From contig DEDN01000030.1 in NCBI GenBank assembly GCA_002349565.1, positions 9,184 to 73,183 of the forward strand: DNA of 64,000 nucleotides, written 5' to 3'. The notes beneath the pieces were generated by a model. It did no database searches. It had not been told where the DNA came from and saw nothing but the letters and a program-made list of their open reading frames with translations. A program made the position numbers and the translations under genes. Every line of letters starts with the position of its first letter. Positions within the stretch are counted from its first letter, which is position 1. This DNA comes from Alphaproteobacteria bacterium UBA2903 (GTDB taxonomy: Bacteria; Pseudomonadota; Alphaproteobacteria; CAAGCB01; CAG-977). Below are positions 1,198 through 60,673 of the stretch, piece after piece.

Positions 1198-2559
1198 ATG
1201 GACTCCCCTTCTTCATATACGTTTTTAAAACTGTTTGCGGCTTTTGTTTTTGTGGCGATTAACGCGTTTTTCGTCGCCGCGGAGTTTTCAATCGTTAAAA
1301 TCCGCCGTTCCCGTTTGGAGGAAATCGAAGCGCACGGCAATAAAAAAGCCAAACTGGCTATCAAAGTCACGTCCGCGCTGGATTCTTATTTAAGTGCGAC
1401 TCAGCTGGGCATTACGCTGGCTTCGCTGGCTTTGGGCTGGATTGGCGAACCCGCTTTGGCGGTCATTATCGACCCCTTGTTCGGTCATTGGCTGAAAGAC
1501 GACCCCGTGCTGATGCATTCGGTCAGCATTGCCGTCGCTTTTACAATCATTACCTTGATGCATGTCGTTTTCGGCGAACTGGTGCCGAAATCCATCGCGA
1601 TTCAGAAAACAGAGATGTCGGTCATGCTGATTGTCCGTCCTTTGTACTGGTTCGCCCGCCTGTTCCGTCCCGTCATCTGGGTGTTTGACCACTGCGCCGC
1701 GCTTGCGCTGAAGCTTATCGGCATTCACCCCGCTCAGGAAAGCGACTTGGTTCATTCCGAAGAAGAATTGAAGCTGATTGCGGGCGCGTCCCAACGCGGC
1801 GGCATCATCGACAAAACGGAAAGCGAAATCATTAAAAACGCCGTTGACTTTTCGGATAAAATCGCGCGTGAAATTATGATTCCGCGGCAAGATATGGAAT
1901 GTCTGTATCTGGAATGCAGTTACGACGAAAACATTGAAATCGTCAAAACAAGCAACCACACGCGCTATCCCGTTTGCGACGAAGACAAGGACAACATCGT
2001 CGGCATGGTGCATTTGCGCGACATTTTGATGAATGAAGGCGAACGCGATATCAAAAAAATGCTGCGTGAAGTTCTGTTCGTCCCCGAAAGCCTGTCGGTG
2101 TCCGAAGTTCTGCACACAATGAAAAAACGCCGCATCCACATGGCGATAGTGATTGACGAATACGGCGGCACGTCGGGCTTGATTTCCATGGAAGACGTTT
2201 TGGAAGAACTGGTCGGCGACATCCAAGACGAACACGACACATCAACCGATGTTTACGAAAAACGCCTTGACGACGGTTCGTACGAATTCTTGGGAATGAC
2301 TTTGCTGGACGAAGCCATGGAATACATGGGACTGCGCCCGTTGGAAGAACACGAGGAAGACACCATCGGCGGCTATGTATTCGGGCTGCTGGCGCGCAAA
2401 CCCAAAGTCGGCGACGTCGTGAACTGCCCGCAATGCAGTTTCGAGATTTTGGAAATCGACGGCTTCCGCGTCAAAAAGGTCAAAGCGACCGTCTCGCCCA
2501 AGCACGACGATGATGACGAAGAAGAAGACGATAAATCCGACGCAGAATCCGAGGAATGA
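1198..2559 (+). CDS. HlyC/CorC-family membrane protein (DUF21 - CBS pair - CorC_HlyC transporter-associated domain); putative Mg/Co efflux or hemolysin-like protein
   Basis: The protein is 453 aa. The N-terminal TM region FAAFVFVAINAFFVAAEFSIVK is the DUF21 signature. CBS-like segments follow, and the C-terminus has an acidic tail (DDDDEEEDDKSDAESEE). A GAGGAAAAG RBS lies before the ATG at 1198. Confidence 0.8.
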   Translation: MDSPSSYTFLKLFAAFVFVAINAFFVAAEFSIVKIRRSRLEEIEAHGNKKAKLAIKVTSALDSYLSATQLGITLASLALGWIGEPALAVIIDPLFGHWLKDDPVLMHSVSIAVAFTIITLMHVVFGELVPKSIAIQKTEMSVMLIVRPLYWFARLFRPVIWVFDHCAALALKLIGIHPAQESDLVHSEEELKLIAGASQRGGIIDKTESEIIKNAVDFSDKIAREIMIPRQDMECLYLECSYDENIEIVKTSNHTRYPVCDEDKDNIVGMVHLRDILMNEGERDIKKMLREVLFVPESLSVSEVLHTMKKRRIHMAIVIDEYGGTSGLISMEDVLEELVGDIQDEHDTSTDVYEKRLDDGSYEFLGMTLLDEAMEYMGLRPLEEHEEDTIGGYVFGLLARKPKVGDVVNCPQCSFEILEIDGFRVKKVKATVSPKHDDDDEEEDDKSDAESEE

Positions 2560-5095: not shown

Positions 5096-7675
5096 ATGAC
5101 CGCATCGCCCGAAACCGTTTACGCCGCAGATTACAAAAAGCCCGCTTATCAAATCAGCCGCGTCGATATAACGTTCGACCTTGGTTTGAACCATACGGAA
5201 ATCACGGCGGAAATGCGCGTTCGCCGCGAACCCGACACGGCGGCGGGAACGCCTTTGTTTTTGGACGGCGACGAACTGACTCTGCAAAGCGTCGCGATTG
5301 ACGGCAGGATTTTGACGGAAAGCGAATACGCGCTGTCGGACGACGGCATGACGATTTTCAATCCGCCCGAAAGCTTTGACTTGACAATCAAAACGGTTGT
5401 CAATCCTACGGCGAACACAAAACTGCAAGGGCTTTACGCGTCTGACGGAATCTTGTGTACCAAATGCGAAACGCACGGTTTCCGCCGCATTACCTATTTT
5501 CTTGACCGGCCCGACGTGATGCCCGTTTGGCGCACGACGCTGATTGCCGACAAAGCAAAACTGCCGACTCTGGTTTCCAACGGCAACAAGGAAGAAGCCG
5601 CAGACTTGCCAGACGGACGGCACAAAGCGGTGTTTTTCGATCCCGTGCCGAAAGCGTGCTACTTGTACGCCGTTGTCGCGGGCAATCTGGACAGGCGGCA
5701 GGACAGCTTTGTGACCCGATCGGGACGCAAGGTTGAACTGAATGTCTTTGTCGAGGCGGGCAAAGGCGATATGACCGCTTACGCTTTGGAATCGCTGAAA
5801 CGCGCGATGAAATGGGACGAAGACACGTTCGGGCGCGAATACGACCATGATGTTTTCAACATTGTCGCGGTGTCGAATTTCAATTCGGGCGCATGCGAAA
5901 ACACGTCTTTAAACATCTTCAACGACAAATATGTGCTTGCCGACCCCGCCAAAGCGACGGATGCGGATTACGCCAACATCGAAGGCGTCATCGCGCACGA
6001 GTATTTTCACAACTGGTCGGGCAATCGCGTTACTTTGCGCGACTGGTTCGATTTGACGCTGAAAGAAGGCTTGACCGTCTACCGCGATCAAGAATTTTCG
6101 TCCGACATGCGGTCGCGCGCCGTTAAACGGATAGAGGACGTTGCGGCGTTGCGCGCGTTCCAGTTCCCGCAGGACGCAAGCCCCCTCGCCCACCCGATAA
6201 GCCCCGATTCCTATATTTCCGTGCGTTCGCTTTACACCACAACCGTTTACGACAAAGGCGCGGAAGTCATCCGCATGATGGCGCGCATGGCGGGCAAAGA
6301 CAAATTTCGCAAAGGCATGGATTTGTACTTTTCCCGCAACGACGGCAAAGCGGTGACGTGTCACGACTTTGTCGCGGCGATTGCCGACGGCGCGGATTTG
6401 GACTTAAAGCAATTCGAGGATACTTGGTATCATCAGGCGGGAACGCCCGCGGTAACCGCTTCGGGCGTTTATGACGCAAAGGAAAAAACATACTCGCTGA
6501 CTTTGCGGCAATCAACGCCCGCGACACCGAATCAACCCGTCAAGCGTCCTTTTGTCATTCCTTTGCAAATCGGGCTGATGGATAAAAACGGCAAAGACAT
6601 GGCGGACGAAATCGTCGTTTTGACCGAATCCGAACAGACTTTCGTGTTTGAAAACATCCCCGAAAGCCCCGTTTTATCAGGCAACCGCGGCTTTACCGCG
6701 CCGATTTGGTTCAAAGCCGACTATACGCCCGAACAGCGCGCTTTGCTGATGGCAAAAGATTCCGATTTGTTCAACCGCTGGGACGCGGGACAGCAGTTCG
6801 CAATCGATATTTTATTGGCTTTGGTCAAAGCCCCCGCCGCCCCCGTTCCGCCCGCTTTCATAAACGCGCTTAAGGGGTATCTGACCGATGAAATGCCGGA
6901 CAAAGCCTTTGTCGCCAAAGCTTTCATCCTGCCGTCCGAACGCATGCTGGCGGAACAAGTCGCCGTTATCGACGTTGACGCGATTCACCGCGCGCGCGAA
7001 GCTTTGCGCCGCCGTATCGCAACCGAATTGAAAGCGGAACTGCTGAACGCTTACAACGCCAATGCCGCAACGGGGGCTTATGTTCCGAACGCGGCGGATT
7101 CGGGCAAGCGCGCCGTTAAAAATACGGCGTTGGCGTATTTAAGCCTGCTTGACGACACATTGGCGCAAAAACAGTACCGTTCGGCGGCGCAGATGACCGA
7201 CAAAGAAGCCGCCGTCCGCGTGTTTGCAGGCAAAGATTCGCCGCAAGCCCAAGCGATTATGGACGACTTTTACCAAACATACAAAAAAGACTCTTTGGTC
7301 GTCGACAAATGGCTGACAATGCAGGCGACGGCGAACGAAAATGCGCTTTCCACCGTCAAAAAGCTGTTGCGCCACGAAGCGTTTTCCATAACCAACCCGA
7401 ACAAAGTCCGCGCGCTTATCGGCGCGTTTGCCGCCAATCCGACGGCACTGCACAAAGCGGACGGTTCGGGTTATGACTTCATCGTTGAACAAACACTTGC
7501 CGTTGACAAAATCAATCCGCAAATCGCGGCGACCATCCCTGTTGCTTTGGGAATGTGGAAAAAATTCGACGCACGGCGGCAGACGTTGATGAAAAACGCC
7601 CTTGTTCGCCTGATGAACACGCCCGATTTATCGCCGAACACTTTTGAAATCGTGTCAAAGTCGCTGAAAGGATAA
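5096..7675 (+). CDS. pepN: Aminopeptidase N (M1 family zinc metallopeptidase)
   Basis: It has the gluzincin motif HEYFHNWSGNRVT...LKEGLTVY, and the N-terminus is PepN-like (YKKPAYQISRVDITFDL). The start was chosen at the ATG at 5096, which has an AAAGGAAG RBS. The gene encodes about 859 aa. Confidence 0.9.
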   Translation: MTASPETVYAADYKKPAYQISRVDITFDLGLNHTEITAEMRVRREPDTAAGTPLFLDGDELTLQSVAIDGRILTESEYALSDDGMTIFNPPESFDLTIKTVVNPTANTKLQGLYASDGILCTKCETHGFRRITYFLDRPDVMPVWRTTLIADKAKLPTLVSNGNKEEAADLPDGRHKAVFFDPVPKACYLYAVVAGNLDRRQDSFVTRSGRKVELNVFVEAGKGDMTAYALESLKRAMKWDEDTFGREYDHDVFNIVAVSNFNSGACENTSLNIFNDKYVLADPAKATDADYANIEGVIAHEYFHNWSGNRVTLRDWFDLTLKEGLTVYRDQEFSSDMRSRAVKRIEDVAALRAFQFPQDASPLAHPISPDSYISVRSLYTTTVYDKGAEVIRMMARMAGKDKFRKGMDLYFSRNDGKAVTCHDFVAAIADGADLDLKQFEDTWYHQAGTPAVTASGVYDAKEKTYSLTLRQSTPATPNQPVKRPFVIPLQIGLMDKNGKDMADEIVVLTESEQTFVFENIPESPVLSGNRGFTAPIWFKADYTPEQRALLMAKDSDLFNRWDAGQQFAIDILLALVKAPAAPVPPAFINALKGYLTDEMPDKAFVAKAFILPSERMLAEQVAVIDVDAIHRAREALRRRIATELKAELLNAYNANAATGAYVPNAADSGKRAVKNTALAYLSLLDDTLAQKQYRSAAQMTDKEAAVRVFAGKDSPQAQAIMDDFYQTYKKDSLVVDKWLTMQATANENALSTVKKLLRHEAFSITNPNKVRALIGAFAANPTALHKADGSGYDFIVEQTLAVDKINPQIAATIPVALGMWKKFDARRQTLMKNALVRLMNTPDLSPNTFEIVSKSLKG

Positions 7676-11637: not shown

Positions 11638-12362
11638 TCCGCCAACAGCCTGTCGCGCAATACTTCCGTAATATCGACGTTGTTGAAATAGCAGGTGGCG
11701 TTTGCGTCTTCGACGGCGCAGCGAACCGTTGAAGCGTCAACATTCTTCAGCAAAGTTTGAAAAGCCTCGCCCGCTTTACCCGCGCGAATTTTAACGTTCA
11801 GCTTGTATGTCTTGCCGCCTATTTTTATTCTGTCCGCGCCGACAACGGTGACCGTTCCCTGCACAATCTTGGACGGATTGACGCCCGCCAAAGCGTCTTT
11901 GGAACGGGAATTGCTCATCAGCTGCGCCCACGAAACGGCTTCGGCGGCATTTTGTCTGCGCCGTTCTTCCGCCGCTTCGTTTTTCTCCGCCGCCTGTTTT
12001 TCCGCGTCCCGCGGGACGGCGATTTCCGCCGATCCGCTTTCGATTGCGGGAACTGCTTTGAGCGGTTCGGCGGGACGCACTTGTTTTCTGGGAAGCATCA
12101 CGCCATTTTCCGCCAATTTTTGAACCGCTTTGTTGGACATGCCGTCAGCGTTCGCTTTCAAGTTGTCTATGCGTTGACCGACGGCGGGCATCGCTTTGCC
12201 TTTTATCCAGTCCCCGATTTCGTCGGGTTTGATTCCCGCCGCGTAAAAAGCGCCGAAAAACACGCAAAGGAACAACGCGACAACAGACGGTCTTTTGACA
12301 AACCATATCAAAAACCGTCTGCCGTCGTCCAAAAAAAACAAAAACCCTTTGAGTATCTTCAT
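11634..12362 (-). CDS. Hypothetical membrane-anchored protein (N-terminal TM, Ala/Glu/Lys-rich linker, small C-terminal beta-rich domain)
   Basis: Its ATG overlaps the metG stop (ATGA), which implies translational coupling. The TM segment is [18 protein letters not shown]. The C-terminal segment [27 protein letters not shown]...[11 protein letters not shown] faintly resembles an SNase-like OB fold without catalytic residues. That resemblance is speculative. Confidence 0.5.
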
Positions 12363-14062
12363 TCGTTCGGATCCGCGCCGTAGCGTTCACACAGTTCGGC
12401 GACGCGTTCCGGCGTGATTTTCTGGAACAAAGGCGTTTCGGGAACGGTGAACGGATGTCCCGCGGGCAGTTTTTGCAGCTCTGCCGCCAAATCATCACCG
12501 ACCCAGCCCAATTCGGCGGAGTTCAGGTTCAGCAGCTTCAGCATTTCAGCCGACGTTTCGGGAATGACGGGCGCGGACAATACGGCGTACAAGCGGATGA
12601 CGTTCAGCGCCATGCGCAAAATCATCGCCGCCTGTTCGGGGTTTTCTTTAATCACCGTCCACGGCGCGGCGGCGGTCAGATAGTTGTTGCCTTCCACCCA
12701 AATCGCGCGCAGCTCGACCAACGCCTTGCGAAATTCCATTTCACGCATGTATTTGGAATAATCGGCAATGCGGGCGGACAATGTGCGGACAAATTCGCGT
12801 TCCATATCGCCCCATTCGCCGCCGGCGGGAACAGCCGCGCCGATTTTGGACGCCGTCATTTTCAAAATGCGGTTGACGAAATTGCCCAAAACGTCGTTCA
12901 AGTCTTTGTTGATTGTCGCGGCAAAGCCCGTAAACGTAAAGCTTGAATCCGAATTTTCGGGCGCGTTTGCCATCAGCCAGTAACGCCAATAGTCGGCGTT
13001 GAATTCGTCCAAAGCCTGATTGGTGAAAATGCCGCGTTTCTGCGATGTGGAGAACTTTCCGCCATAGAACGTCAGCCAGTTGAATCCTTTGATATAATCG
13101 ACCTTTTTCCACGGTTCGCGCACGCCCAGCAAAGTCGCGGGGAACATAATCGTGTGGAAAGGAATGTTGTCCTTTGCCATAAATTCGACATAGCGGACAT
13201 CGCGGGTGTCATACCACCAGTCTTTCCAGTTGCGGTGTTCGGGGTCTTTTTCCGCCCATTCCGCCGTCGCGCCGATATATTCGATCGGAGCGTCGAACCA
13301 CACATAAAACACTTTGCCGTCAAAGCCGTCGCACGGAACGGGAATCCCCCACTTCAAATCGCGGGTGATGCAGCGTTCGCGCAATCCCTCTTTCAGCCAT
13401 TTGCGGGCAATCGAAGTCACAACAACGGGCCATTCGGCTTCGTGGGAGTCGATGAATTTCGTCAATTCGCCTTCCAGCATCGGCAGTTTCAGGAACAAAT
13501 GCTTGCTGTCCTTGATTTCCAAGTTGTGCGATCCCGACACGGCGGAACGCGGGTTAATCAAGTCCGTCGGATCAAGCACGCGCGTGCAGTTTTCGCATTG
13601 GTCGCCGCGGGCGGCTTCGTATCCGCAGTGCGGGCAAGTCCCGACGATGTAGCGGTCGGGCAAAAAGCGCCCGTCATCAACGGAATAAACCTGTTTGATG
13701 GTGCGTTCCTCGATATAGCCGTTTTCCATCAGCTTTTTGCACATATGCTGGGTCAGCTTGGTATTTTCATCCGAAGACGACCGACCGAAATGGTCGAACG
13801 ACAGGTTGAAGCGGCGATAAATATCCTTTTGGACTTCGTGCTGTTCGGTGCAGAATGTTTCGACATCCTGATGTTTTTCCAGCGCCGCCAGCTCTGCGGG
13901 CGTACCGTGTTCGTCGGTTGCGCAAATAAACAGAACATCCTCGCCCGTTTGGCGCAAAAACCGCGAATAAACGTCGGCGGGCAGCATGGAGCCGACCAGA
14001 TTGCCCAGATGTTTGATGCCGTTGATGTACGGCAGCGCGCTTGTAATCAGATATTTCGTCAT
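12359..14062 (-). CDS. metG: Methionine--tRNA ligase, short form lacking C-terminal tRNA-binding/dimerisation domain
   Basis: The true start is at [21 protein letters not shown] (HIGH-like). It has KMSKS-type FSTSQ, and Zn-knuckle Cys are present ([17 protein letters not shown]). The 5' part of ORF 12359..14629 is read-through of the upstream intergenic region. The gene encodes 567 aa. Confidence 0.9.
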
Positions 14063-14161
14063 GACAGCCTCGAAGCTCTTTGATAAAAAATACTGTTTGA
14101 TTTTTACCCGCTTTTCGGACAACATTTCAAGGACAAAAACAGCTTTTGCCAAAATATTTGA

Positions 14162-14734
14162 ATGGGAGTTTTTAAAATGTTGCTTAATTTGCCCGACAGT
14201 ATTCTGTTCCGCCCCGTCCGTCCGCAGGATTTGAATGCGGTGATGGAAATCGAAAAAGGGGCGTTCGATGCCGGTGTACAGGAAGGCAGCGATTTGTACG
14301 AAAAGCGGATTGACGCGTTTCGCGACGGTTTTCTGGTTGCCGAAGATTACGAAACGGGGCAAGTCGGCGCATATATCTGTTCCGAAATCTGGCACAAGGA
14401 TATGGCGCTGGATTCGGAAACGCTCGCCCTCGGACACGATCCGCAGAAAGCCCACAATCCGCAGGGAACGCAGCTGTACATCACATCGTTTGCCGCGCGT
14501 TCCGATTGGCGCGGACGGCAAATCGGGACGGGATTGTTTCAAGCGCTGGAAAAACGGATTCGGACGAAATATCCCGCCGTTGACGAATTCATTTTGATTG
14601 TGTCCGAAAAATGGAACGCCGCGCATCACATCTATGAAAAAGGCGGCTTCAAGGAAATCGGTCGGATTATCAATTTCTTCACGCCCGACAACAAACCCGA
14701 GGAAGACGCGATTTTAATGCGCAAAGCCTTATAA
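14162..14734 (+). CDS. GNAT-family N-acetyltransferase
   Basis: It has the acetyl-CoA binding motif region ([16 protein letters not shown]), is 190 aa, and has a start alternative at MLLNLP (14177). Confidence 0.7.
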
Positions 14735-15196
14735 GTGTTCCGCCGCCCACTGCTTGGCGGTGGCGGCAAGCGGCGCGATATCCGCGTTTTTCAGCCGATC
14801 GGGCGGCAGATAAGCCGCCAGTTCGATTAAACGCGCCGCCCGTTTGTCCAATGCTTTGTTTTTCAGCGTTTGACGCAAAAACGCGCTCCATTGCGCGCCA
14901 TGCAAAGCGGCAACCTGCTCTTTCGGGAACTTCATCAGCGCCATACGCCGCAACAGTCCCAGCAAAGCCGTTATTTTGTCGTATGCGTCGCCTTGTTTCG
15001 TTATGCGGTCGATTTCGGCAAACGTGTACGCTTTCGCCGTCAGCTTGCGGCGGTATTTCAAGGCAACGCGGATTAAAACGGCAAAGACGATTACACCCGC
15101 CAGCATATACCATACGCTTGCATTCGGCGGGAAAGCCGACGGCATAGGCGGCAAATGAATGTCTTTCAATCCCGACAGATCGATATTCGGCTGCAT
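14729..15196 (-). CDS. DUF4381-like small membrane protein, third gene of MoxR operon
   Basis: It has one TM (WYMLAGVIVFAVLI) and lies immediately downstream of the MoxR and DUF58 genes. Its start overlaps the stop of the DUF58 gene. Confidence 0.55.
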   Translation of the reverse strand: MQPNIDLSGLKDIHLPPMPSAFPPNASVWYMLAGVIVFAVLIRVALKYRRKLTAKAYTFAEIDRITKQGDAYDKITALLGLLRRMALMKFPKEQVAALHGAQWSAFLRQTLKNKALDKRAARLIELAAYLPPDRLKNADIAPLAATAKQWAAEHL

Positions 15197-16155
15197 TACC
15201 CTTTCCTTTCAAACAAAGCGGAACGAAGCGTTCGAATCAAATCGTCATCCGTTCGGACGGGAACATACAGCATTTTGTGCGCCAAGCAAAAATCGGAAAC
15301 ACGCTTGCGCGCCGTTTCAAAACGCTGTGTGTACGCCGTGCGCCAATCCGCATCATCGGCGGGCAAAGTCATCATGTTTTGTCCGTCGCTGACACGATAC
15401 GTCCCCGACGGCGGCGGTGCGGCTTCCAGCGCGTCGAAAATTTGAACGCACACCACATCGCAATGCAGTCCGATTGCCGCCAAATGTTTTTCGGAATCTT
15501 CGTCAAAGTCGTGAAAGTCGCTCAGCACGAACACGCGTCCGCCCGTTTTGCTGACACGTCGCAATTCCGCCAGAACGCCCGACAACGCGGGTTCGTTTTC
15601 GGCGGCGTTCAAATCGTCGCATGCGGCGGCGGTCGCGTTGAACACCTCCATCAGCCGCCGCATCTGGCGGTGCGGAGCGACCTTGACAAACCCGTTCGAC
15701 GATACAATCAGCGCGCCGATTTTGTCGCCGTTTTCGCGCGACGCCCACGCCAAAGCCGCCAAAGCTTTTGCCGCAACCACGGATTTAAAGGCTTTGCGCG
15801 TGCCGAATTTCATAAAGCTGCGGAAATCCCCCAAAAACAAAACGGGACGGTCGCGTTCTTCGCGGTACAATTTGGTATAGGGCTTTCCCGTCCGCGCGGT
15901 TACGCGCCAGTCTATCAACCGCACGTCATCGCCCGCGTGATAGGATCGCACTTCGTCGAACTCCATGCCGCGTCCGCGAAACGGCGAACGGTGCTGTCCG
16001 AATCCTTCGGAGCGCGACACGCCGCGCGTATCAAACGACAGCAGCCGCACAAAACGCTTCATCGCCGTCAAATCCGACAAAGCGACCGAAACGCCGTTTT
16101 CCCGATTTTCTTCGGTACGTTCGGCTTTCAGCAATGTGCGCAGTTTTTCCAGCAT
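15196..16155 (-). CDS. DUF58 domain protein (vWA-like, MoxR partner)
   Basis: It is 319 aa and has the characteristic DUF58 region (RPYHAGDDVRLIDWRVTARTGKPYTKLYREERDRPVLFL). It is adjacent to and overlaps the MoxR ATPase gene. Confidence 0.75.
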   Translation of the reverse strand: MLEKLRTLLKAERTEENRENGVSVALSDLTAMKRFVRLLSFDTRGVSRSEGFGQHRSPFRGRGMEFDEVRSYHAGDDVRLIDWRVTARTGKPYTKLYREERDRPVLFLGDFRSFMKFGTRKAFKSVVAAKALAALAWASRENGDKIGALIVSSNGFVKVAPHRQMRRLMEVFNATAAACDDLNAAENEPALSGVLAELRRVSKTGGRVFVLSDFHDFDEDSEKHLAAIGLHCDVVCVQIFDALEAAPPPSGTYRVSDGQNMMTLPADDADWRTAYTQRFETARKRVSDFCLAHKMLYVPVRTDDDLIRTLRSALFERKG

Positions 16156-17132
16156 TACGGCAAAGGCACCCGTTTCAACAGCAAATCCAAAAAGCTGTCG
16201 GGCGTAATGCCCTCGGCTTCTGCTTCAAACGTCAAAATGACGCGGTGGCGCAGAACATCATGAACGATGCCGTGCACGTCTTCGGGCAGGACAAAATCGC
16301 GCCCCGCCAGCCACGCTTTCGCCCGCGCACAGCAGTCAAGCGCGATTGTGCCGCGCGGGCTTGCCCCGAAAGCGACCAAGCGTTTGAACTTTTCGCCGTA
16401 TTTTTCGGGTTTGCGCGTCGCCATGACCAGCTGAATGACATATTCCTCCAAAGCGGGGGACAAATGCACGTTCAAAACTTCGCGGCGGGCTTCAAAAACG
16501 CGCTGCTGAGGCATAACCTCGACGGGGATTTCAGCCCCCTCCTCCAGCGCTTCGTTGCGGACAATCTGCAAAATCCGACGTTCCGCCGCCGCGTCGGGCT
16601 GGTCGATTTTGACATACATCAAAAAACGGTCAAGCTGCGCTTCCGGCAAAGGATACGTCCCTTCCTGCTCTATCGGGTTTTGGGTCGCCATAACCATAAA
16701 CAAAGCGGGCAAACGATATGTTTTTCCGCCGACGGTGACTTGCCGTTCCGCCATGGCTTCCAGCAAAGCCGACTGCACTTTCGCGGGCGCGCGGTTGATT
16801 TCGTCAGCTAAAATCAAGTTGTGGAAAATCGGTCCCGCCTGGAATTTGAAATCGCCCGTTTCGGGACGGTAAATATCGCTGCCCGTAATATCGGACGGCA
16901 GCAAGTCGGGCGTGAACTGAATACGCTGATCGTCGCCTTCAATGGCTTCGGACAGTTTTTTGATTGCCTTTGTTTTCGCCAGCCCCGGCGCGCCTTCGAC
17001 CAGCAAATGACCGTCCGCCAGCAAAGCGACCAACAGCTTGTCCACCAAATCCGCCTGTCCGACGATATTGGCGTTCATATAGTCTTTTAACCGCTGAAAA
17101 CTGCGGGCGGCAACCGTTTTTTCCCGTTCCAT
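16155..17132 (-). CDS. MoxR-family AAA+ ATPase
   Basis: Walker A is GAPGLAKT. Walker B/sensor is ILADEINRAPAKVQSALLEAMAERQVTVGG. The protein is 325 aa. Confidence 0.85.
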   Translation of the reverse strand: MEREKTVAARSFQRLKDYMNANIVGQADLVDKLLVALLADGHLLVEGAPGLAKTKAIKKLSEAIEGDDQRIQFTPDLLPSDITGSDIYRPETGDFKFQAGPIFHNLILADEINRAPAKVQSALLEAMAERQVTVGGKTYRLPALFMVMATQNPIEQEGTYPLPEAQLDRFLMYVKIDQPDAAAERRILQIVRNEALEEGAEIPVEVMPQQRVFEARREVLNVHLSPALEEYVIQLVMATRKPEKYGEKFKRLVAFGASPRGTIALDCCARAKAWLAGRDFVLPEDVHGIVHDVLRHRVILTFEAEAEGITPDSFLDLLLKRVPLP

Positions 17133-17163
17133 CGAAAACTCCTTTTATTCTGCTTTCTGTTAT

Positions 17164-18306
17164 TTAGTACGCGCGCCGCCTGCATGCAAGGGGCAGCAGA
17201 ACGGCAATCACCGTTTGCATTGACACGCCGATTTTCGCCGCCCAAACGCCGTCAAAGAAAATCGCCCCGAACGCCAAAACAAACAGGGGCAAGTCCGCTT
17301 TCAAATACCCGCGCCGTTCGGAATCGTACAGCAAAAACGCACCCGCCGCGGATAAAAGCGCGCCGTCCCCCGCCGCCGCAACGGGTGTCAGCAACACGCT
17401 TGCGGCACACAAAAACGCATTCTGCACAGCTTCTGATTTAAAGCGATACTTGAAAAACAGCTTATATCCGATTGAAAACACATACAACACACAGACGGTC
17501 TGAAAAAGTATAGCGACAAAAGGACTTGCCCCGCCGCACAGCAAAATCCCCGCAGGCGACACAAAGCGGCACGGAGCGGCTTTCAACGCCTGGAACGCCG
17601 CCGAAACAGCCGCGCCGTAAGCCGCAAAACCGTAGCGCATCCCTGCCGCAATCAGCAAAAAACCGCCGACCAAAGCCGCCGTCATCAACGCTTTTTTCTG
17701 TTTTCTAAAAGCAAACGCAAACAAGACCAAAGCGAACATCAGCGGCTCAGCCGCCAGCAATCCGCCGAAGAATCCCGCCCGTTTCGGACAGTTTTCCGCC
17801 AGCATCAAAGACAGCACGGCGCAAGCGGCGACATACAGTCCGAAACCGCCGAACGCGAAATTCAAAAACGCGGCGGGCAAAGCGGCAAGCAGTAAAACGG
17901 AGATACGCAAAGGAAACAACGCGTACAGCGCAACGCCGAACAGAAAAAATCCCCAGAAAAACACAGTATCGAAATAGCCTATATACGGCAAAGGCATGAA
18001 CGGCACGGCGATAAAAGCTTTGACGGGCGACGCGAACGCGGCAAAAGTCCCCCTGCTTTGCATTTTATTGCGCAAATACGCGGTTTGCACGGCGGAATCG
18101 TATGCGTCCGCGGGGGAGCTTTCCAACAATCGGAACGCCGCAAAATCCCCTGCGGCGTCTTCACCGATGACGCGCAAAGCCGAACTTTCCAAACGCGGCA
18201 AGCCGTCTTCATTATACATCGCCGACCGCAGCAGCAGAGTGTAAACCGTCATCGCGCCGATCAAAAACAGCAGCACCAGTTGAAAAAAGCGTTTTTCCGT
18301 ACTCAT
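17164..18306 (-). CDS. Uncharacterised polytopic integral membrane protein (about 10 predicted TM helices)
   Basis: The 380-aa protein is dominated by hydrophobic Ala/Phe/Leu/Gly-rich segments. There is a 31-nt gap to the MoxR gene downstream and a 34-nt gap to the DUF3800 gene upstream, all on the same strand. Confidence 0.55.
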   Translation of the reverse strand: MSTEKRFFQLVLLFLIGAMTVYTLLLRSAMYNEDGLPRLESSALRVIGEDAAGDFAAFRLLESSPADAYDSAVQTAYLRNKMQSRGTFAAFASPVKAFIAVPFMPLPYIGYFDTVFFWGFFLFGVALYALFPLRISVLLLAALPAAFLNFAFGGFGLYVAACAVLSLMLAENCPKRAGFFGGLLAAEPLMFALVLFAFAFRKQKKALMTAALVGGFLLIAAGMRYGFAAYGAAVSAAFQALKAAPCRFVSPAGILLCGGASPFVAILFQTVCVLYVFSIGYKLFFKYRFKSEAVQNAFLCAASVLLTPVAAAGDGALLSAAGAFLLYDSERRGYLKADLPLFVLAFGAIFFDGVWAAKIGVSMQTVIAVLLPLACRRRAY

Positions 18307-18340
18307 TAAGACATCCTTTTAAATTTCGGAAAGAATATAA

Positions 18341-19195
18341 TTACTTCACATCTTTGAACATAGCGACAGCGTTTTTCTTTTGCAGCGGATCGGAAACGAC
18401 GATGCCGCCCATATTGAACCCCGCGCTGTTTGTAAAGCGGTGCTGAAGCTCGCGCAAACGGTGTCCGTAGCGTTCCCTCAGATCCAGCGCGGCGGGCTGA
18501 ACGTGAACGTTATGCACAACATCCGCACAATAAACATAGCTGGCAATCGGAAACAAAAAAGCGGAACACAGGATATCGCACAGCTGCAATCCCGCCAGAT
18601 TGTTGCTGTGTCCGAAACACGGCATTTCCACTATGTTTTGATAAAGCGGATGCAGCACGCGGAATTTCTGCGTAAAAACGGAATGGGACACGTTGATGTT
18701 TTTCATATAATCGCGGCTGTCCGCAACGCAAAACCCGAAATCGTTCCGTTCTTTCAGATAATTGTCAAAGTAAGTGTATATGCTTTGAATCGACGACGTG
18801 TAAACCGCTTTGCCGTTGAACGGTTCGCCGGGGACTTTGACCCAGATGCGCCCGACGATGCGGATGTCGTATTTGAAAAACAAATCGACGATCCTGTCCA
18901 AAAATCCGATGGCATGCCGCTGGACACGGTGTCCGCCGCGCATGGCGTTGCGGCGCAAATCCGCCCCTTTGATTTCGGGAATGATGCGGTCCAGATATTT
19001 GTCCGTCTGGTAATTCAAGTGCGGGTAATAGCGGTATTTCAGCCCGATGAAATCATGAGTCAAATCATACAGGCATTCATGGTCGACAAAAATGCCGCCG
19101 ATCGCCAAAACGGGCTGATGATTGCCGTCGGGATTTTCCACAACGGGCAAAGTTCCCAAATCGCCCGATTCGTCAATGTAGCAGATTTTAACCAC
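18341..19195 (-). CDS. DUF3800 family protein
   Basis: The N-terminus MVKICYIDESGDLG matches the hallmark (Y/L)IDESG start of DUF3800. It has a GTG start at 19193-19195 with a GGAGG RBS 6 nt upstream. It is 284 aa and has lower GC than its neighbours. Confidence 0.65.
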   Translation of the reverse strand: MVKICYIDESGDLGTLPVVENPDGNHQPVLAIGGIFVDHECLYDLTHDFIGLKYRYYPHLNYQTDKYLDRIIPEIKGADLRRNAMRGGHRVQRHAIGFLDRIVDLFFKYDIRIVGRIWVKVPGEPFNGKAVYTSSIQSIYTYFDNYLKERNDFGFCVADSRDYMKNINVSHSVFTQKFRVLHPLYQNIVEMPCFGHSNNLAGLQLCDILCSAFLFPIASYVYCADVVHNVHVQPAALDLRERYGHRLRELQHRFTNSAGFNMGGIVVSDPLQKKNAVAMFKDVK

Positions 19196-19213
19196 ACTTC
19201 CTCCGATACAACT

Positions 19214-19236
19214 AAGACCACCCGAGGGTGGTCTTT
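19214..19236 (-). promoter_or_regulatory. Perfect 10-bp stem / 3-nt loop hairpin in the 5' leader of the DUF3800 gene
   Basis: The sequence aagaccaccc-gag-gggtggtctt lies about 19 nt upstream of the GTG and just 5' of the RBS. No U-tract follows on either strand, so it is not a canonical terminator. Confidence 0.4.
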
Positions 19237-19366
19237 AGGATTTGCAAGCCGATAAAGGACTTGCCGAAAAATTACTTTTTCAGGATAGGAAAAAAGCCCC
19301 TGTCCGTCAAGAAAAAAATCAAAAATTAACTTAAAAGCCGTATAAAGAAAACCAAAAGGAATAAAA

Positions 19367-20080
19367 ATGAAAGACACCGGACTGAAATCTTTTTACTCGT
19401 CAATGCTTGCGCCCTGCCCGTATATTGCGGGACGCGAGGAATCGAAACTGGCGGTTGACATATCGGGCGCGTTTGCATCGGATTGGAACAATTTGCTGAG
19501 CCGCGCCGGTTTTCGACGCTCGCACAGCGTTTGCTACATTCCCGCATGCCCGAATTGCAGCGAATGCATATCCGTGCGCATTCCCGTCGCGGAATTTCAG
19601 CCGTCGAAAAAAATGCGCAAAGTTCTGCGAATCAACGAAAACGCCAAAATCGCTTTTACGCCGAACATTGCCACAACGGAACAATTCGACCTGTTTGCGG
19701 CTTATTTGCTCTGCCGCCATGCCGAAAGCGATATGACGCAAATGTATTACGAAGAATACCGCGCCATGATTGAAGACGCCAATGTCGATTCCGTTTTGAT
19801 GGAAGTGCGCGAAAACGCGACCCTGCAAGCCGCGATGCTGGTTGATGTTCTGGATGACGGGTTGTCGGCGGTTTACAGCTTTTTCGACCCGAAGCAGCGC
19901 AGGCGCAGCTTAGGGACTTTTATGATTTTAAAGCTGATTGAAGAAGCGCGGAAAATCGGACTGCCGTATGTTTATCCGGGGTATTGGATAAAATCCGTGT
20001 CCAATATGGCGTACAAAGCGAAATTCCAGCCGCTGGAATACTTTGTCAACGGAATGTGGACGCGCTCACTCCCCGATTAA
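19367..20080 (+). CDS. bpt: Arginyl/leucyl-tRNA--protein transferase (Bpt / Ate1-like, N-end rule)
   Basis: It is 237 aa. The Cys cluster CYIPACPNCSEC and the C-terminal GNAT-like fold motifs (FDLFAAYLLCRH, YVYPGYWI) are typical of bacterial Bpt. Confidence 0.8.
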   Translation: MKDTGLKSFYSSMLAPCPYIAGREESKLAVDISGAFASDWNNLLSRAGFRRSHSVCYIPACPNCSECISVRIPVAEFQPSKKMRKVLRINENAKIAFTPNIATTEQFDLFAAYLLCRHAESDMTQMYYEEYRAMIEDANVDSVLMEVRENATLQAAMLVDVLDDGLSAVYSFFDPKQRRRSLGTFMILKLIEEARKIGLPYVYPGYWIKSVSNMAYKAKFQPLEYFVNGMWTRSLPD

Positions 20081-21687: not shown

Positions 21688-21718
21688 AAAGGCGGAGAAT
21701 TTTCCCCGCCTTTTGCTT
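21688..21718. terminator. Bidirectional intrinsic terminator (A7-GGCGG...CCGCC-T4) at the 3' end of the autotransporter gene
   Basis: The sequence aaaaaaaggcggagaattttccccgcctttt was read directly. It serves the minus-strand autotransporter, whose stop is at 21718, and any plus-strand read-through from ppa. Confidence 0.5.
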
Positions 21719-24700
21719 TAAAAGTTGATTTTCGCATTCATCACAACGGAATGGCTTTCCAGTTTTCCTTGGAACATACCGTCGTACAAAAGGGACAGGC
21801 TGGCGGATTTGCCGAAATTCATTGAAAAACCCGCCCCCGCTTCAATGCCGAACCGTTTGTCTTGGTCCGTTTCAACGATATAGCTTGTGCCGTTGGGCAG
21901 CACCGCGGTCCTGTCGCTGCCGGTGCGGACAAAATCGTATGTGGCGGCGGCTTTCAGTTCCGGCATAAACAAAACGGGGGTCTTCCCTTTCAGACGATAC
22001 CGTTTTGACAGCTTGAATCCGAGGACAGAGGTTGCGGCGGAACTGTTTTTGTCTTCCAGCTCAACCCCCAAAGCATCGGTGTAAGCCTTTTGATGCGTGT
22101 TGATGAAGCGCACGGCGAATTCGGGGGACAACAGCACGGGAGCGGCATAGCCGAACGCGATTTGCGCGCTGATCGTGTTGGTCTGGTATTCGCTTTCCAA
22201 TTTCGCGATTTTTGTTGTGTCGTTGTAGGAGGAACGACCGAAGCCCGCAAAAAAGTTCGTGTAGAACCGTTTGGGCTGATACTGGGCGTACACAAAACCC
22301 GTTTGCGTGTCAACATCGACATCGGATCTGTCCGCGTCAATGGATGTCGAAGCATAGGAATACCCCAATCCGACTTTGAAATCATCGGAAAGATAGGCTT
22401 CCATACCCGCCGCAAACCCTGCCGAATCGGATGAAAAGCCCTCTGTTCCGCGCTGTTCGGCGTGGTTGTACAGCCCTTGCGCCCAAACCGCGCCGTTTCC
22501 TGCTTCGTAATCGCCGCCGGAACGTCCGTACATCCGTCTGTATCCGGCAAAACGGGGCGCGCTCGGCATATTAAAGCGGGTGGACACGACATTGATAACG
22601 TTTTTGGCGTGGTTTTCGTCAATCAGGATTCCGAATTTCGACAAATCGGGGGCGATTTCGCGCATAACTTGGTATTTCTTTTCGGTATCGCCGTCAAACT
22701 TTGTCAGCAAATCGTCGATTTTATTCAAAGCGTCTTGCTGTTTGTCCGTCAGCTTGTCCAAATCTTTGTCGTTCAGATCCAGAATTTTCAAAGCGTCCTT
22801 GATAACGGGATGAACTTCCATGTCTTTGACCATCGAGGCAGCTGACAAGCGCAATATGTACAGATCTCCACCGTCCCAGTTCGTCAAAGCTCCGATTTTC
22901 GAAGCGTCCGCAGGGTCGAAATATTTTGCCGAAACCGCATAACGGCTTGTCAAATAGTCGCCGAATTTGAACCCCGATCCTTCGGTGATGTGATACAGCG
23001 TCGTTTTGGTGGTGGATGCCGTCCCCATTTCCAGCTTGATCGTAACGTTTTCCGCATTGGCGGTGATGATGGGCGTGGTCTTTGCGGCATCGGTCAATAT
23101 GGCGGAAATCGTCCCGCCCGTGATGTTGTCCGCTTTCAACGGGGTCGCCCCGATGTCCAGCGTTTTGCTGTCGCCGATGCCGATATCGCGGAATGAAAAG
23201 CCGTAGCCGCGGGTCACGTCGCTTAACGCGTAATCGGCATTAAAGTTCACATTCGCCGATCCCGACAGCGTGCCGTTCAGACGCGCCGATGAGGTTTGAA
23301 AATCAATCGTCGCGCCGTCGGCGGCGACATCGCCGATCATCGTTCCTTTTAACTCAAGGGTGGAAGCACCGTCCAAATGCAATTTCTCGTCTGCGGACGA
23401 AAACGTCAAAACGGCGTTGTCGGCGACATCCAAAACAGAGCCGACAAACTGAACTTTACCCGAACGGGCGGACAATTCGTTGTTGCCGTTGGCAATGATT
23501 TTTGAGTTTTCGACATATATGTTGCCCGCCTCGAAAGCCACACTTAAAGGAGTAACCATGTAGGGTTGTACATTATATACAGGGGCTTTTTCATTTGACA
23601 AACTGTCGTTGATCAGCTTTGCATTGTCGTTCAGCACAAATGTCGAATTGACAATCGTTACATCCGCCCCGTAACCATTTTTCAAAGTGTTGTTGAAGTC
23701 TTCATAATCAAACGTCATCCATTCTCTAAAACCTGCTTCATCATTGCACCTCGATTGGATTTCTTCTTTGGTGGAAGAACTGCCGAAAATCTTTTTTGTA
23801 AAATCCGTCAATGATTCGCCATCTCCGTAAACATCTTCAACAAGGAAGTCTACGGCAGTCTTGATTTCATCGGCTGTCAATTGACCGCGAAAGAGCAAAA
23901 GAGGACTGTCTTCACTCGAACTGCCGACACTCGAAACCGAAGCCGGAGGTCTGTAGGCGGTGGATGCCAAAGAAGCATATCCGATTCCCGCGGCTGAATT
24001 TCCATTTAAAGTTATTGTCGCATCCGTAAAAGCGACATCATATTTGTCGGCAGAATAAATTTGGGAAGGGGTGTACAATGTTTTGCCATCAATTTGGTAA
24101 ACCAAGATTCCGGTATTTGTAAAATCACCCAAAAAAGAATTGTTGTTCGCCGTGATTTTTTTCGGAAACAGACAGCGCAGAAATTGATGTATCCGAAACG
24201 GAAATCCCCCGTTCACCCGTAACTTTTAAATCCCAAGTCGAAATTAACGGATATTCAGGAACATTATATCCCAGCCCATTTGATTTGTATATTGTGTTGA
24301 AAGACACCTTGTCGGAATCGATGGAAATCGTTTCGGCGTCCAAATATACAAAATCATCCAGAGTGCCGCCCGTAAGGGTGATGGTGCCAGCCTTAAATGC
24401 CGCCGCCCCGAACGTTCCCCCCGAAATTGTAATGCTCCCCGAGTTTTGAGCTCTAAAAGAAACGTCCGAGAAATCGCCGTCCTCAATCGACAAAGCGGCG
24501 GACGCATCGTACCAGCCGCCTTTGTGCGTTCCGCCCTTGATTGTGATATCCGGTGCGTCAATGTCTGTATCCGAAAAATCACCGGCTTCAATCAGTAAAG
24601 AATCTTCATCGGAAAGATATTCATTTTTATGTGGTCCCTCCGAAATTGTTGTTGCCGCTTCGACGATATAAGGAAAAAACGTTAAATTCGCCAAAAAACA

Positions 24701-59740: not shown

Positions 59741-60511
59741 TCAAGCGTCGGCTTTATCGGCGACTTCGACGTCTTCGACAACGGTTTCCTGAGCGCCCAA
59801 ATCAACGCCCGCGGCGGTCATTTCCGCCTGAATGCCGTCCAACACGGAACCCGCGATCAAATCGCAGTACATGTTGATGGCGCGGATGGCGTCGTCGTTG
59901 CCCGGAACGGGAAATTCAATGTCGTCGGGGTTCGAATTCGTATCGCAAATCGCGATGACGGGAATGCCCAAACGGCGCGCTTCGTTCAAAGCCAAGCCTT
60001 CTTTGACGGTGTCGATGACGAAAATCAAATCGGGACGACCGCCCATGTCTTTGATGCCGCCCAGCGAGCAGTCCAGTTTTTCACGTTCGCGTTCCAGATT
60101 CAGTTTTTCCTTTTTGGTCAAACCTTCCAGTTCGCCTTTTTCCTGCTTGGCATTGATTTCTTTCAAGCGGCGAATCGACTGTGAAACGGTTTTCCAGTTC
60201 GTCAGCGTGCCGCCCAGCCAGCGGTGGTTGACATAGTACTGACCGCAACGTTCGGCAGCTTCGCGAACAGCCTGCTGAGCCTGATTTTTCGTACCGACGA
60301 ACAAAACGCGGCCGCCGTTTGCGGCGACATCGCGCGCCGCCTGCATGGCGCGGTACAGCATCGGAACCGTCTGCTGCAAGTCGATAATGTGAACATTGTC
60401 GCGCGTGCCGAAAATGTACTGTTTCATTTTCGGATTCCAGCGGCGGGTGTTGTGACCAAAGTGAACGCCCGCTTCAATCAGCTGACGCATTGTGAATGTG
60501 GGAAGAGCCAT
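59741..60511 (-). CDS. rpsB: 30S ribosomal protein S2
   Basis: It has [22 protein letters not shown] and is 256 aa. Confidence 0.92.
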
Positions 60512-60519
60512 TTTATATC

Positions 60520-60600
60520 CTCTTTTTCCGGTTAAACCTCCGCGGGTTGTTGAGGCGGGAACCCTCCCGCCACCGGAGCGATTTTCCCCTTGCGAAGAAA
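60520..60600 (-). promoter_or_regulatory. Structured GC-rich 5' leader of rpsB (nested stems), candidate S2 autoregulatory element
   Basis: The sequence ctccg-cgggttgttga-ggcggga-accc-tcccgcc-ac-cggag forms nested perfect stems immediately upstream of the rpsB start. Confidence 0.35.
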
Positions 60601-60673
60601 TCCGCCTGTACCCGCGTGTGAAATCGGGTTGTTTTTACCCTGTTTTTTTTCCTTTTGCAAGCGTTTTTATCAT

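Follow-up and report, generated by a model that had tools for sequence, protein, structure and literature searches.

The 64,000-nt window analyzed here (positions 9,184 to 73,183 of contig DEDN01000030.1, assembly GCA_002349565.1, from Alphaproteobacteria bacterium UBA2903) contains a tight string of five co-oriented minus-strand genes that encode, in this order, a DUF3800 protein, a polytopic membrane protein, a MoxR ATPase, a DUF58 protein and a DUF4381 protein. This order, as it was given in the initial annotation, is borne out by the six-frame list of open reading frames (ORFs) and the Pfam scans of the window that define our gene calls. The initial annotation also proposed a physical and possibly functional link between the DUF3800 gene and the MoxR genes, for example, within an accessory or stress/defense-type module. 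The comparisons described below lead to a different reading, to which we assign a probability of roughly 0.75: three units, each with a history of its own, have come together in the five-gene string, namely, a DUF3800 cassette with a structured leader RNA, a GT87-like gene and a trimmed Bat-type MoxR operon, which are not one module. The features on which this reading is based are the following.

18341-19195 (-), DUF3800 gene, 284 aa, GTG start, PF12686
18307-18340 (-), 34-nt spacer between the DUF3800 gene and the membrane protein gene, the apparent meeting point of two independently conserved synteny blocks
17164-18306 (-), polytopic membrane protein, 380 aa, predicted divergent homolog of GT87 (GT-C type)
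16155-17132 (-), MoxR AAA+ ATPase, Pfam AAA_3 (E=7e-64) and AAA_lid_2
15196-16155 (-), DUF58 protein, Pfam E=1e-38, start overlapping the MoxR stop by 1 nt
14729-15196 (-), DUF4381 protein, Pfam E=1e-27, final gene of the trimmed operon
14162-14734 (+), convergent GNAT gene, abutting the 3' end of the DUF4381 gene
19367-20080 (+), bpt, divergent neighbor, Pfam ATE_N and ATE_C domains
19196-19366, intergenic spacer between bpt and the DUF3800 gene, 171 nt

Among the distances between these genes that were initially reported as 34, 31, 0 and 0 nt, the first two are exact and both zeros are actually 1-nt overlaps. The divergent orientation of bpt holds as well, with an intergenic region of 171 nt instead of the 170 nt reported. 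The GTG start of the DUF3800 gene is supported by the homologs, which start at the same residue (MVKICYIDES...), and by a GGAGG sequence 4 nt upstream. Some database entries (293-296 aa) start the protein 9-12 codons further upstream, within stem P2 of the leader RNA described below; these longer calls are likely mis-annotations, given that the 284-aa version with the GTG start agrees with both the alignment of homologs and the Shine-Dalgarno (SD) sequence.

Gene neighborhoods and the 34-nt junction

The possibility that DUF3800 and MoxR genes recur as neighbors in other genomes, on which the proposed link depends, is contradicted by a survey of a sample of about 20 DUF3800 loci. These loci, with DUF3800 proteins 35-83% identical to that of the window, represent about 20 contexts, none of which includes a MoxR, DUF58 or GT87 gene, and tblastn searches with the MoxR, DUF58, DUF4381 and membrane proteins of the window yielded no match in the surveyed loci from other species. 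What the window shares with two other species is the gene order PPase-124aa-YjbQ-bpt-DUF3800. In one of these (L017; DUF3800 79% identical), the block upstream of DUF3800 is kept and a convergent Sel1 gene follows; in the other (L034/L035; 83% identical), the same upstream block is kept and is followed by a gene for a type III glutamine synthetase (GlnA-III). At 73% identity, the DUF3800 homolog sits between DUF6782 genes and rpsI/rplM and, at 65% identity, between DUF362 and a HAD hydrolase. The further contexts comprise seven viral contigs, five plasmids (from Thiothrix, Acinetobacter, Burkholderia and Klebsiella) and four more genomes, and include UDG/APH, a TacA-GNAT toxin-antitoxin pair beside a relaxase, R2K genes and a site right after rpoA.

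Two of these contexts merit separate description. At the ribosomal protein site (L053, 2845-3001), the DUF3800 cassette stands immediately after rpsM-rpsK-rpoA, in a position that is commonly occupied by rplQ, and is followed by a DUF2283 gene. The Klebsiella plasmid (NZ_AP021980.1, 4550 bp) is of the ColE1 type, mobilizable, with RNAI at 2200-2301, and a DUF3800 gene, with the leader motif in front of it, is its sole annotated cargo beyond mob and rep.

The window's species is an uncultured alphaproteobacterium of the human gut, with relatives such as UBA6411 and HGM16787/8, and all 23 of its contigs that we read carry the five-gene arrangement. The sister species, in which MoxR is 96-99% and metG is 97-98% identical to the window homologs, encode the GT87-like protein, MoxR, DUF58, DUF4381, the convergent GNAT protein and metG, without DUF3800. 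Upstream of the membrane protein gene, these genomes contain sufB-sufC-sufD-sufS, a 45-aa ORF and FeS_assembly_P, with the stop codon of FeS_assembly_P overlapping the start of the membrane protein gene; the latter is translationally coupled to the last gene of the suf operon. The suf and GGDEF genes of the sister species are absent from the window, and the YjbQ-PPase segment of the window is inverted relative to the sister species. As detected by blastn, the homology between the window and the sister species spans 12135-18313, ending 7 nt before the ATG of the membrane protein gene, and the homology between the window and L017, which covers the bpt-DUF3800 block, ends at 18350. Because both synteny blocks end at the 34-nt spacer, this spacer appears to be a rearrangement junction of two independently conserved blocks, and the adjacency of the DUF3800 and MoxR genes appears to be a rearrangement specific to the window's species. 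The tight five-gene string is, then, a product of rearrangement in a compact genome.

Examination of the junction revealed no convincing flanking repeats at the 34-nt spacer, and there are no tandem repeats in 18250-19420. A single flanking pair was detected, a 19-nt direct repeat with 79% identity between the copies (18282-18300 and 19289-19307), which brackets the DUF3800 cassette. With one copy falling among the first codons of the conserved GT87 coding sequence, and the other within the promoter spacer, the repeat is probably due to chance, but it could be microhomology from the rearrangement.

The alternative, under which all five genes form one functional accessory, stress or defense module, with the two head genes replacing the vWA proteins, draws on the common orientation of the genes, the gaps of 34, 31, -1 and -1 nt, the lack of any terminator-like site between the five genes and the identical arrangement across all contigs read from the species. 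It is at odds with the about 20 other DUF3800 loci that lack MoxR, DUF58 and GT87; with the sister species, where a 96-99% identical MoxR is found without DUF3800 at this place; with the termination of both synteny blocks inside the spacer; and with the distant relatives in which the GT87 gene is combined with a full, complete Bat operon, so that GT87 is no substitute for the vWA proteins. Moreover, the only PADLOC match among the five proteins is that of MoxR, which is at chance level. We therefore regard the single module as highly improbable and as already largely refuted by the neighborhood survey. A stress/defense-type module that includes MoxR is not supported, and any role of DUF3800 in defense would not involve MoxR.

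The structured leader RNA and the putative DUF3800 nuclease

The DUF3800 protein of the window matches PF12686 with 56.9 bits (cut-off 21; E=5e-15) over profile positions 1-147 of 149. It belongs to a well-conserved subfamily of proteins of about 280 aa, with 416 matches in our searches, which are about 55% identical between Alphaproteobacteria, Gammaproteobacteria and a metagenome-assembled genome of Capsulimonadaceae. In an alignment of 60 members, D207 is invariant, and D8, E9, D159 and Q204 are conserved in at least 90% of the sequences; in the window protein, D8/E9 lie in the motif YIDESGD and Q204/D207 in GLQLCDIL. The closest folds are those of RNase HII, H2A and HIII, which makes this an RNase H-like fold of the RNase H2 type, and the protein is predicted to be an RNase H2-like nuclease with intact carboxylate residues; no solved structure of a DUF3800 protein was detectable by sequence. 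The nuclease fold agrees with published work on the family (PMC7736814, PMC10910872), in which the DE and QxxD motifs define the Pfam DUF3800 family and the DUF3800 domain is found in retron type VII effectors (PMC7736814). DUF3800 domains are also present in Cas12a2/Cas12a3 loci, as TPR-DUF3800 proteins (PMC10910872, PMC13594972), and in Csx32 of the Cas13 CASK loci (bioRxiv 10.64898/2026.08.25.746378). By analogy with these reports, a defense-type role for DUF3800 by itself is plausible. The window protein resembles the retron- and Cas-associated proteins in the family match, the N-terminal DE and the C-terminal QxxD; it differs from the retron VII and Cas12-associated types in being a stand-alone protein of about 280 aa, with no TPR or reverse transcriptase fusion, and, unlike the known defense-associated DUF3800 genes, those of its subfamily keep a stable synteny with bpt within the gut clade. 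The surroundings of DUF3800 in the window are free of retron, CRISPR and other defense genes. The search against PADLOC-DB 2.0 gave no match for the DUF3800, GT87-like, DUF58 and DUF4381 proteins, and the only match of MoxR was to DolB, at chance level (E=0.0013). The subfamily is represented on 12 of 72,556 plasmids, in none of 50,697 cultured phage genomes and in no complete E. coli genome. The ratio of nonsynonymous to synonymous substitution rates (dN/dS) of the DUF3800 gene between species is 0.075.

The noticeably lower GC content that was initially ascribed to the DUF3800 gene turned out to be an overstatement. Its value of 0.501, against 0.547-0.568 in the four downstream genes, equals those of other genes nearby (bpt 0.508, PPase 0.502, GNAT 0.511), and the GC content at third codon positions (GC3), 0.635, is normal relative to the window mean of 0.62 +/- 0.045. 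Horizontal transfer of the gene, judged by composition, was rejected because of this normal GC3.

The spacer between bpt and DUF3800 contains a promoter and an RNA structure with the following parts.

19282-19310 (-), sigma-70-like promoter of the DUF3800 cassette, TTGACG-17 nt-TATCCT, predicted by the promoter scan
19200-19268 (-), conserved structured leader RNA, about 67 nt, range including the SD, delineated by covariance model R1
about 19244-19264 (-), leader stem P1, a bulged hairpin
19237-19243 (-), leader linker AAAUCCU
19212-19238 (-), leader stem P2, an 11-bp GC-rich hairpin with one bulged A, containing the 10-bp hairpin 19214-19235
directly after P2 (-), leader tail UAGUUGU(U)
19200-19204 (-), SD GGAGG, followed by the GTG start at 19195

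The perfect 10-bp hairpin noted initially is indeed present, with 0 mismatches, as AAGACCACCC-NN-GGGTGGTCTT at 19214-19235; it occurs once in the window, where 0 matches are expected by chance. An alignment of the regions upstream of DUF3800 from five loci in different contexts shows a common layout of aligned TTGAC and TAnnnT promoter boxes, a pair of hairpins and a pair of conserved single-stranded blocks. Visual inspection finds this layout also upstream of homologs on plasmids, in viral sequences and at other chromosomal sites, down to about 35% protein identity. The covariance model R1, which was built from ten seed sequences and comprises 67 positions and 19 pairs, scores 66 bits in the window (E=3e-14) and matches 18 distinct DUF3800 loci, including the window, with E values from 1e-7 to 3e-18; 8 of these loci are outside the seed. 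The model has no match in loci without DUF3800, nor in 1.09 Mb of viral DNA that was picked for holding the flanking words (pattern AAATCCT-N20-32-TAGTTGT, at least 120 loci), none of which is a true motif by R1.

The pairing of the leader is supported by covariation. In the alignment fitted to R1, 90% of the cells are paired, compared to 27-49% in slid controls, and 13 of the 19 pairs are altered on both sides; there are 47 cells with double changes against 13.7 +/- 3.1 in shuffled alignments, and 0 of 500 shuffles reach the observed number. As an independent check, RNAalifold applied to a plain MAFFT alignment recovers P2, with compensatory changes in 5 of 10 pairs. A third helix, P0, between the 5' flank or the linker UCCU and the SD, is suggested by single-sequence folds in some loci and was discarded for lack of an RNAalifold consensus. 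By inspection, no convincing alternative pairing between the arms of P1 and P2 that could serve as an antiterminator was found. In 15 of the 18 loci, by our own count on the alignment, P2 is followed by at least 5 U within 8 nt, and a simple scan calls P2 terminator-like in three loci (L053, L043 and L045), so that in most loci P2 looks like an intrinsic terminator.

The hairpin could be merely a DNA palindrome, such as a protein operator, a generic terminator or a repetitive extragenic palindromic element, and not a specific RNA. It is, after all, a perfect inverted repeat, and the reverse strand yields weak R1 matches confined to P2. However, the stem sequence changes with the pairing kept (6 of the 11 pairs of P2 are doubly changed), and the use of G-U pairs on the sense strand, which are A-C mismatches on the other strand, favors an RNA over a DNA palindrome. 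Furthermore, P2 is always accompanied by P1 and the two conserved single-stranded blocks, it occurs only once in the window, and, with bpt being divergent, there is no upstream gene on that strand to terminate. The palindrome explanation accordingly carries very little weight, and the association of the leader RNA with one DUF3800 subfamily is well supported.

The leader is absent from Rfam: no family of Rfam 15 matches the window leader or the 131-nt slices of L053 and L045 at E<=10, nor ten further loci at E<=1, although Rfam contains DUF3800-I, DUF3800-IX and other such motifs (PMC11701678). Eleven unrelated RNA motifs of unknown function, DUF3800-I to -XI, have been described near DUF3800 genes (RF02969, RF02968 and others in Rfam; PMC5737381). 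Like these motifs, the leader is a structured RNA found specifically beside DUF3800 genes in several phyla, most of its copies end in a hairpin resembling a Rho-independent terminator, and its orientation is reversed in one case. Unlike the DUF3800 motifs in Rfam, it has its own consensus (bulged P1, AAAUCCU, 11-bp P2, UAGUUGU) and, unlike the published motifs, it is, in 17 of the 18 loci, a sense-strand 5' leader whose end lies 4-18 nt upstream of the start codon. Judged against the Rfam 15 models, the leader is probably a new member of the group of DUF3800-associated RNAs, with a small chance that it is identical to a published motif outside Rfam. The stronger claim, that it is a twelfth, undescribed class and also a functional partner of the nuclease, which would recognize the RNA, be inhibited by it or cleave it, is a tentative one that we consider somewhat unlikely. 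If this claim is true, the cassette of promoter, RNA, terminator and nuclease would amount to a minimal RNA-protein module that regulates itself and travels among chromosomes, plasmids and phages, and the pair, small and easy to align, would lend itself to studying why DUF3800 genes are accompanied by a dozen unrelated RNAs.

The order of elements, that is, promoter, structured RNA, terminator-like stem, SD and ORF, suggests that DUF3800 is a self-contained, autonomous cassette with its own promoter. There is no room for a promoter between P2 and the SD, so that the nuclease would be translated only from transcripts reading past P2. Given that P2 is terminator-like in most relatives, the leader would most likely set the expression of DUF3800 by attenuation, or else through RNA stability, and the nuclease might feed back on the leader.

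A more elaborate scheme sees in the leader RNA and the DUF3800 protein a two-component RNA-protein unit for plasmid maintenance or defense instead of a cis-regulated gene; the leader, as a small terminated transcript, would bind the RNase H-like protein, inhibit it or direct it. The succession of promoter, structured RNA, terminator-like hairpin and nuclease gene is compatible with such a unit, as is a phage contig (L037) in which RNA and gene have opposite orientations. The published DUF3800 motifs lie on either side of the gene and face either way, several of them with a terminator at the end (PMC5737381); single-gene cassettes are found on small plasmids, including the 4.5-kb mobilizable plasmid with no other annotated cargo, and at varied chromosomal sites; and DUF3800 domains turn up repeatedly, in retrons of type VII and in loci associated with Cas12 and Cas13 (PMC7736814, PMC10910872, PMC13594972, bioRxiv 10.64898/2026.08.25.746378). 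The layout is also reminiscent of type III toxin-antitoxin systems of the ToxIN kind, in which a promoter, a small structured RNA, an intrinsic terminator and a nuclease gene follow one another and expression requires read-through of the terminator. However, only this order is shared: the leader RNA lacks the tandem repeats of type III antitoxins, and the fold of the protein is RNase H-like and not that of ToxN/AbiQ. Also speaking against a two-component unit are the lack of a PADLOC match, the scarcity of the subfamily (0 of 50,697 cultured phage genomes and only 12 of 72,556 plasmids), its behavior as a stable gene of the gut clade, with a dN/dS of 0.075 and synteny with bpt across species, and the location of the RNA exactly at the position of a 5' untranslated region in 17 of 18 loci. 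On balance, we find this scheme unlikely and favor a cis-acting leader. A short leader whose terminator-like stem stands immediately ahead of the SD is a simple system in which to study the interplay between an RNA and a nuclease.

The GT87-like gene and the trimmed Bat-type operon

The membrane protein, for which 10 transmembrane segments were initially claimed, is indeed polytopic, with about 10-12 segments by hydropathy. Its match to PF09594 (GT87), 22.8 bits, is below the Pfam cut-off of 25, but 8 of the 13 members of its clade match this family, with the best E value of 7e-9. A full-library HMMER search (1.84 billion proteins) retrieved 11 cluster representatives at E<1e-30, followed by a long tail of proteins of about 400 aa; 25 members of this tail all match PF09594, with E values down to 3e-41, and hhalign of the membrane protein profile against these 25 proteins gave an end-to-end alignment of 368 columns (probability 99.9%, E=4e-37). 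Within the clade, D54 hardly varies and most members share E49; both residues lie in the first external loop, near the conserved DF motif of the GT87 family, although the register against that motif is uncertain. A sequence-profile search of the PDB with the membrane protein gave no match. Thus, the protein, uncharacterized before, is predicted to be a divergent homolog of the GT87 (GT-C type) glycosyltransferases, a family that includes PimE. It is similar to the polyprenol-phosphate-mannose-dependent mannosyltransferases of the GT87/DUF2029 family in the end-to-end profile alignment and in the about 10-12 membrane segments, and differs from them in its sub-threshold Pfam score and its restriction to a narrow clade of 11 cluster representatives.

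The part of the initial annotation that joined the membrane protein gene to the MoxR operon fares better than the DUF3800 link, since this adjacency recurs throughout the clade. The GT87-like gene adjoins MoxR in all relatives found, down to 41-46% identity for GT87 and 85% for MoxR, with a gap of 31-35 nt in the window's clade. In two more distant relatives (L029 and L030, which show the identities just given), a conserved opposite-strand PD40-like gene lies between GT87 and moxR, so the two are apparently not one transcription unit there; the synteny of GT87 and MoxR is conserved and their co-transcription apparently is not.

The same two relatives, which are the closest outgroup, have a complete operon, MoxR, DUF58, DUF4381, VWA (BatA-like), VWA/TPR (BatB-like) and BatD, which is followed by the same convergent GNAT gene. 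This composition corresponds to the canonical Bat (Bacteroides aerotolerance)-type layout, MoxR-DUF58-(DUF4381)-BatA-BatB-(BatC)-BatD (PMC3557215, PMC11834572, PMC5700661). The window operon is like the Bat type in that DUF58 and DUF4381 come after an AAA_3 MoxR, each start codon overlapping the preceding stop, and unlike it in that batA, batB and batD are lacking, the operon ends at DUF4381, facing GNAT, and a GT87-like gene stands directly upstream. The absence of the vWA genes batA and batB was correctly recognized in the initial annotation, and the comparison with relatives points to loss: the window and all sister species lack batA, batB and batD at the exact site where L029 and L030 have them, and tblastn with the L029 BatA, BatB and BatD found no match in the 64-kb window or the fetched sister loci. 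The parsimonious reading is that the three genes were lost in the window's clade, which would also have lost the small opposite-strand gene between GT87 and moxR.

The remaining MoxR-DUF58-DUF4381 trio is still under purifying selection, with dN/dS of 0.02-0.09 for MoxR, 0.13-0.16 for DUF58 and 0.20-0.24 for DUF4381; the value for GT87 is 0.19-0.25. A Bat-type operon that lacks the vWA and BatD partners and yet is constrained bears on a role of MoxR/DUF58 that is independent of BatA/BatB. When 12135-18313 of the window is compared with the sister loci L013, L023 and L011, the synonymous divergence (dS) forms a mosaic in a single genome pair. Against L013, it is 0.03 for MoxR, 0.16 for metG, 0.27 for DUF58, 0.70 for DUF4381 and 0.71 for the GT87-like gene, which suggests either a recent recombination event across moxR or, in the two membrane-associated genes, alleles that are evolving fast or have diversified. 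A bin labeled as Limosilactobacillus gorillae ('Limosilactobacillus gorillae ... cleanbin'; CAVCSV010000004.1) carries the alphaproteobacterial block GT87-MoxR-DUF58-DUF4381-GNAT-metG, with MoxR and metG 96-98% identical to those of the window, and is probably mislabeled or contaminated.

Conserved adjacency could mean that the GT87-like enzyme cooperates with MoxR-DUF58-DUF4381, for example, in the assembly or remodeling of an envelope glycoconjugate or complex. Such cooperation would account for the adjacency in every relative found, at GT87 identities as low as 41-46% and MoxR identity of 85%, and for the gap of merely 31-35 nt in the window's clade; GT87 and DUF4381 are, furthermore, both fast-evolving in the same genome pair (dS of about 0.7 vs 0.03 for MoxR). 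However, the opposite-strand gene splits GT87 from moxR in L029 and L030, the relatives all come from one narrow gut clade with 11 cluster representatives, so that the synteny may be inherited and not selected, and no such association was found in the literature searched. We consider functional cooperation unlikely and continue to treat the GT87-like gene and the trimmed operon as separate units.

The five-gene string as a probable composite

In and around the 34-nt spacer (18307-18340), a scan detected neither a sigma-70-like promoter nor a hairpin resembling a terminator, which suggests that the GT87-like and MoxR genes are probably transcribed by read-through from DUF3800. The rearrangement would have put the bpt-DUF3800 block before the GT87 gene, where the sister species have the end of the suf operon, and transcripts from the DUF3800 promoter would now proceed past P2, with its weak U-tract, into GT87 and MoxR. 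Read-through of this kind would be an accident of layout and not a functional link. Of the link proposed initially, the physical part stands, with co-transcription likely in the window's species as judged from sequence, and the functional part is not supported, given the lack of recurrence in the sampled loci. A DUF3800-MoxR link would have given the first functional context for two poorly understood families; the adjacency appears instead to be accidental.

Several observations weigh against parts of this interpretation. The arrangement shows no variation among the 23 contigs read from the species, which leaves room for a newly acquired functional coupling, and, as to the direction of the rearrangement, either state may be ancestral. 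Both the read-through into GT87 and MoxR and the attenuation at P2 are proposed from sequence features. In the window and its closest relatives (L017 and L034), P2 is followed by a weak U-tract (UUGUAUC), and P2 may not terminate transcription in the window, where the scan does not call a terminator. In the phage contig L037, which carries portal and terminase genes, the motif (2346-2416, minus strand) is on the strand opposite to DUF3800; this copy, the only inverted one found, is located some 80 nt upstream of the DUF3800 gene and faces the portal gene, an ill fit to a purely cis-acting leader. Finally, the GT87 assignment comes from profile comparison, and the AlphaFold2 model of the membrane protein, built with 8 close homologs, has a predicted local distance difference test score (pLDDT) of 37.6.

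Two further features of the window lie apart from the five-gene string. The autotransporter gene beside PPase, at 21718-24216 (-), encodes 832 aa in the window, and the called length differs among contigs of the same species (L001-L010, at about 5700-7480), with 542, 750, 201+347 and 255 aa; this variation may reflect a variable or frameshift-prone passenger domain or an assembly artifact. The Rfam family rpsB (RF01815, typed 'sRNA') matches at 60513-60620 (-) with 50.6 bits against a gathering score of 40, upstream of a 256-aa minus-strand ORF (59741-60511) that may be rpsB.

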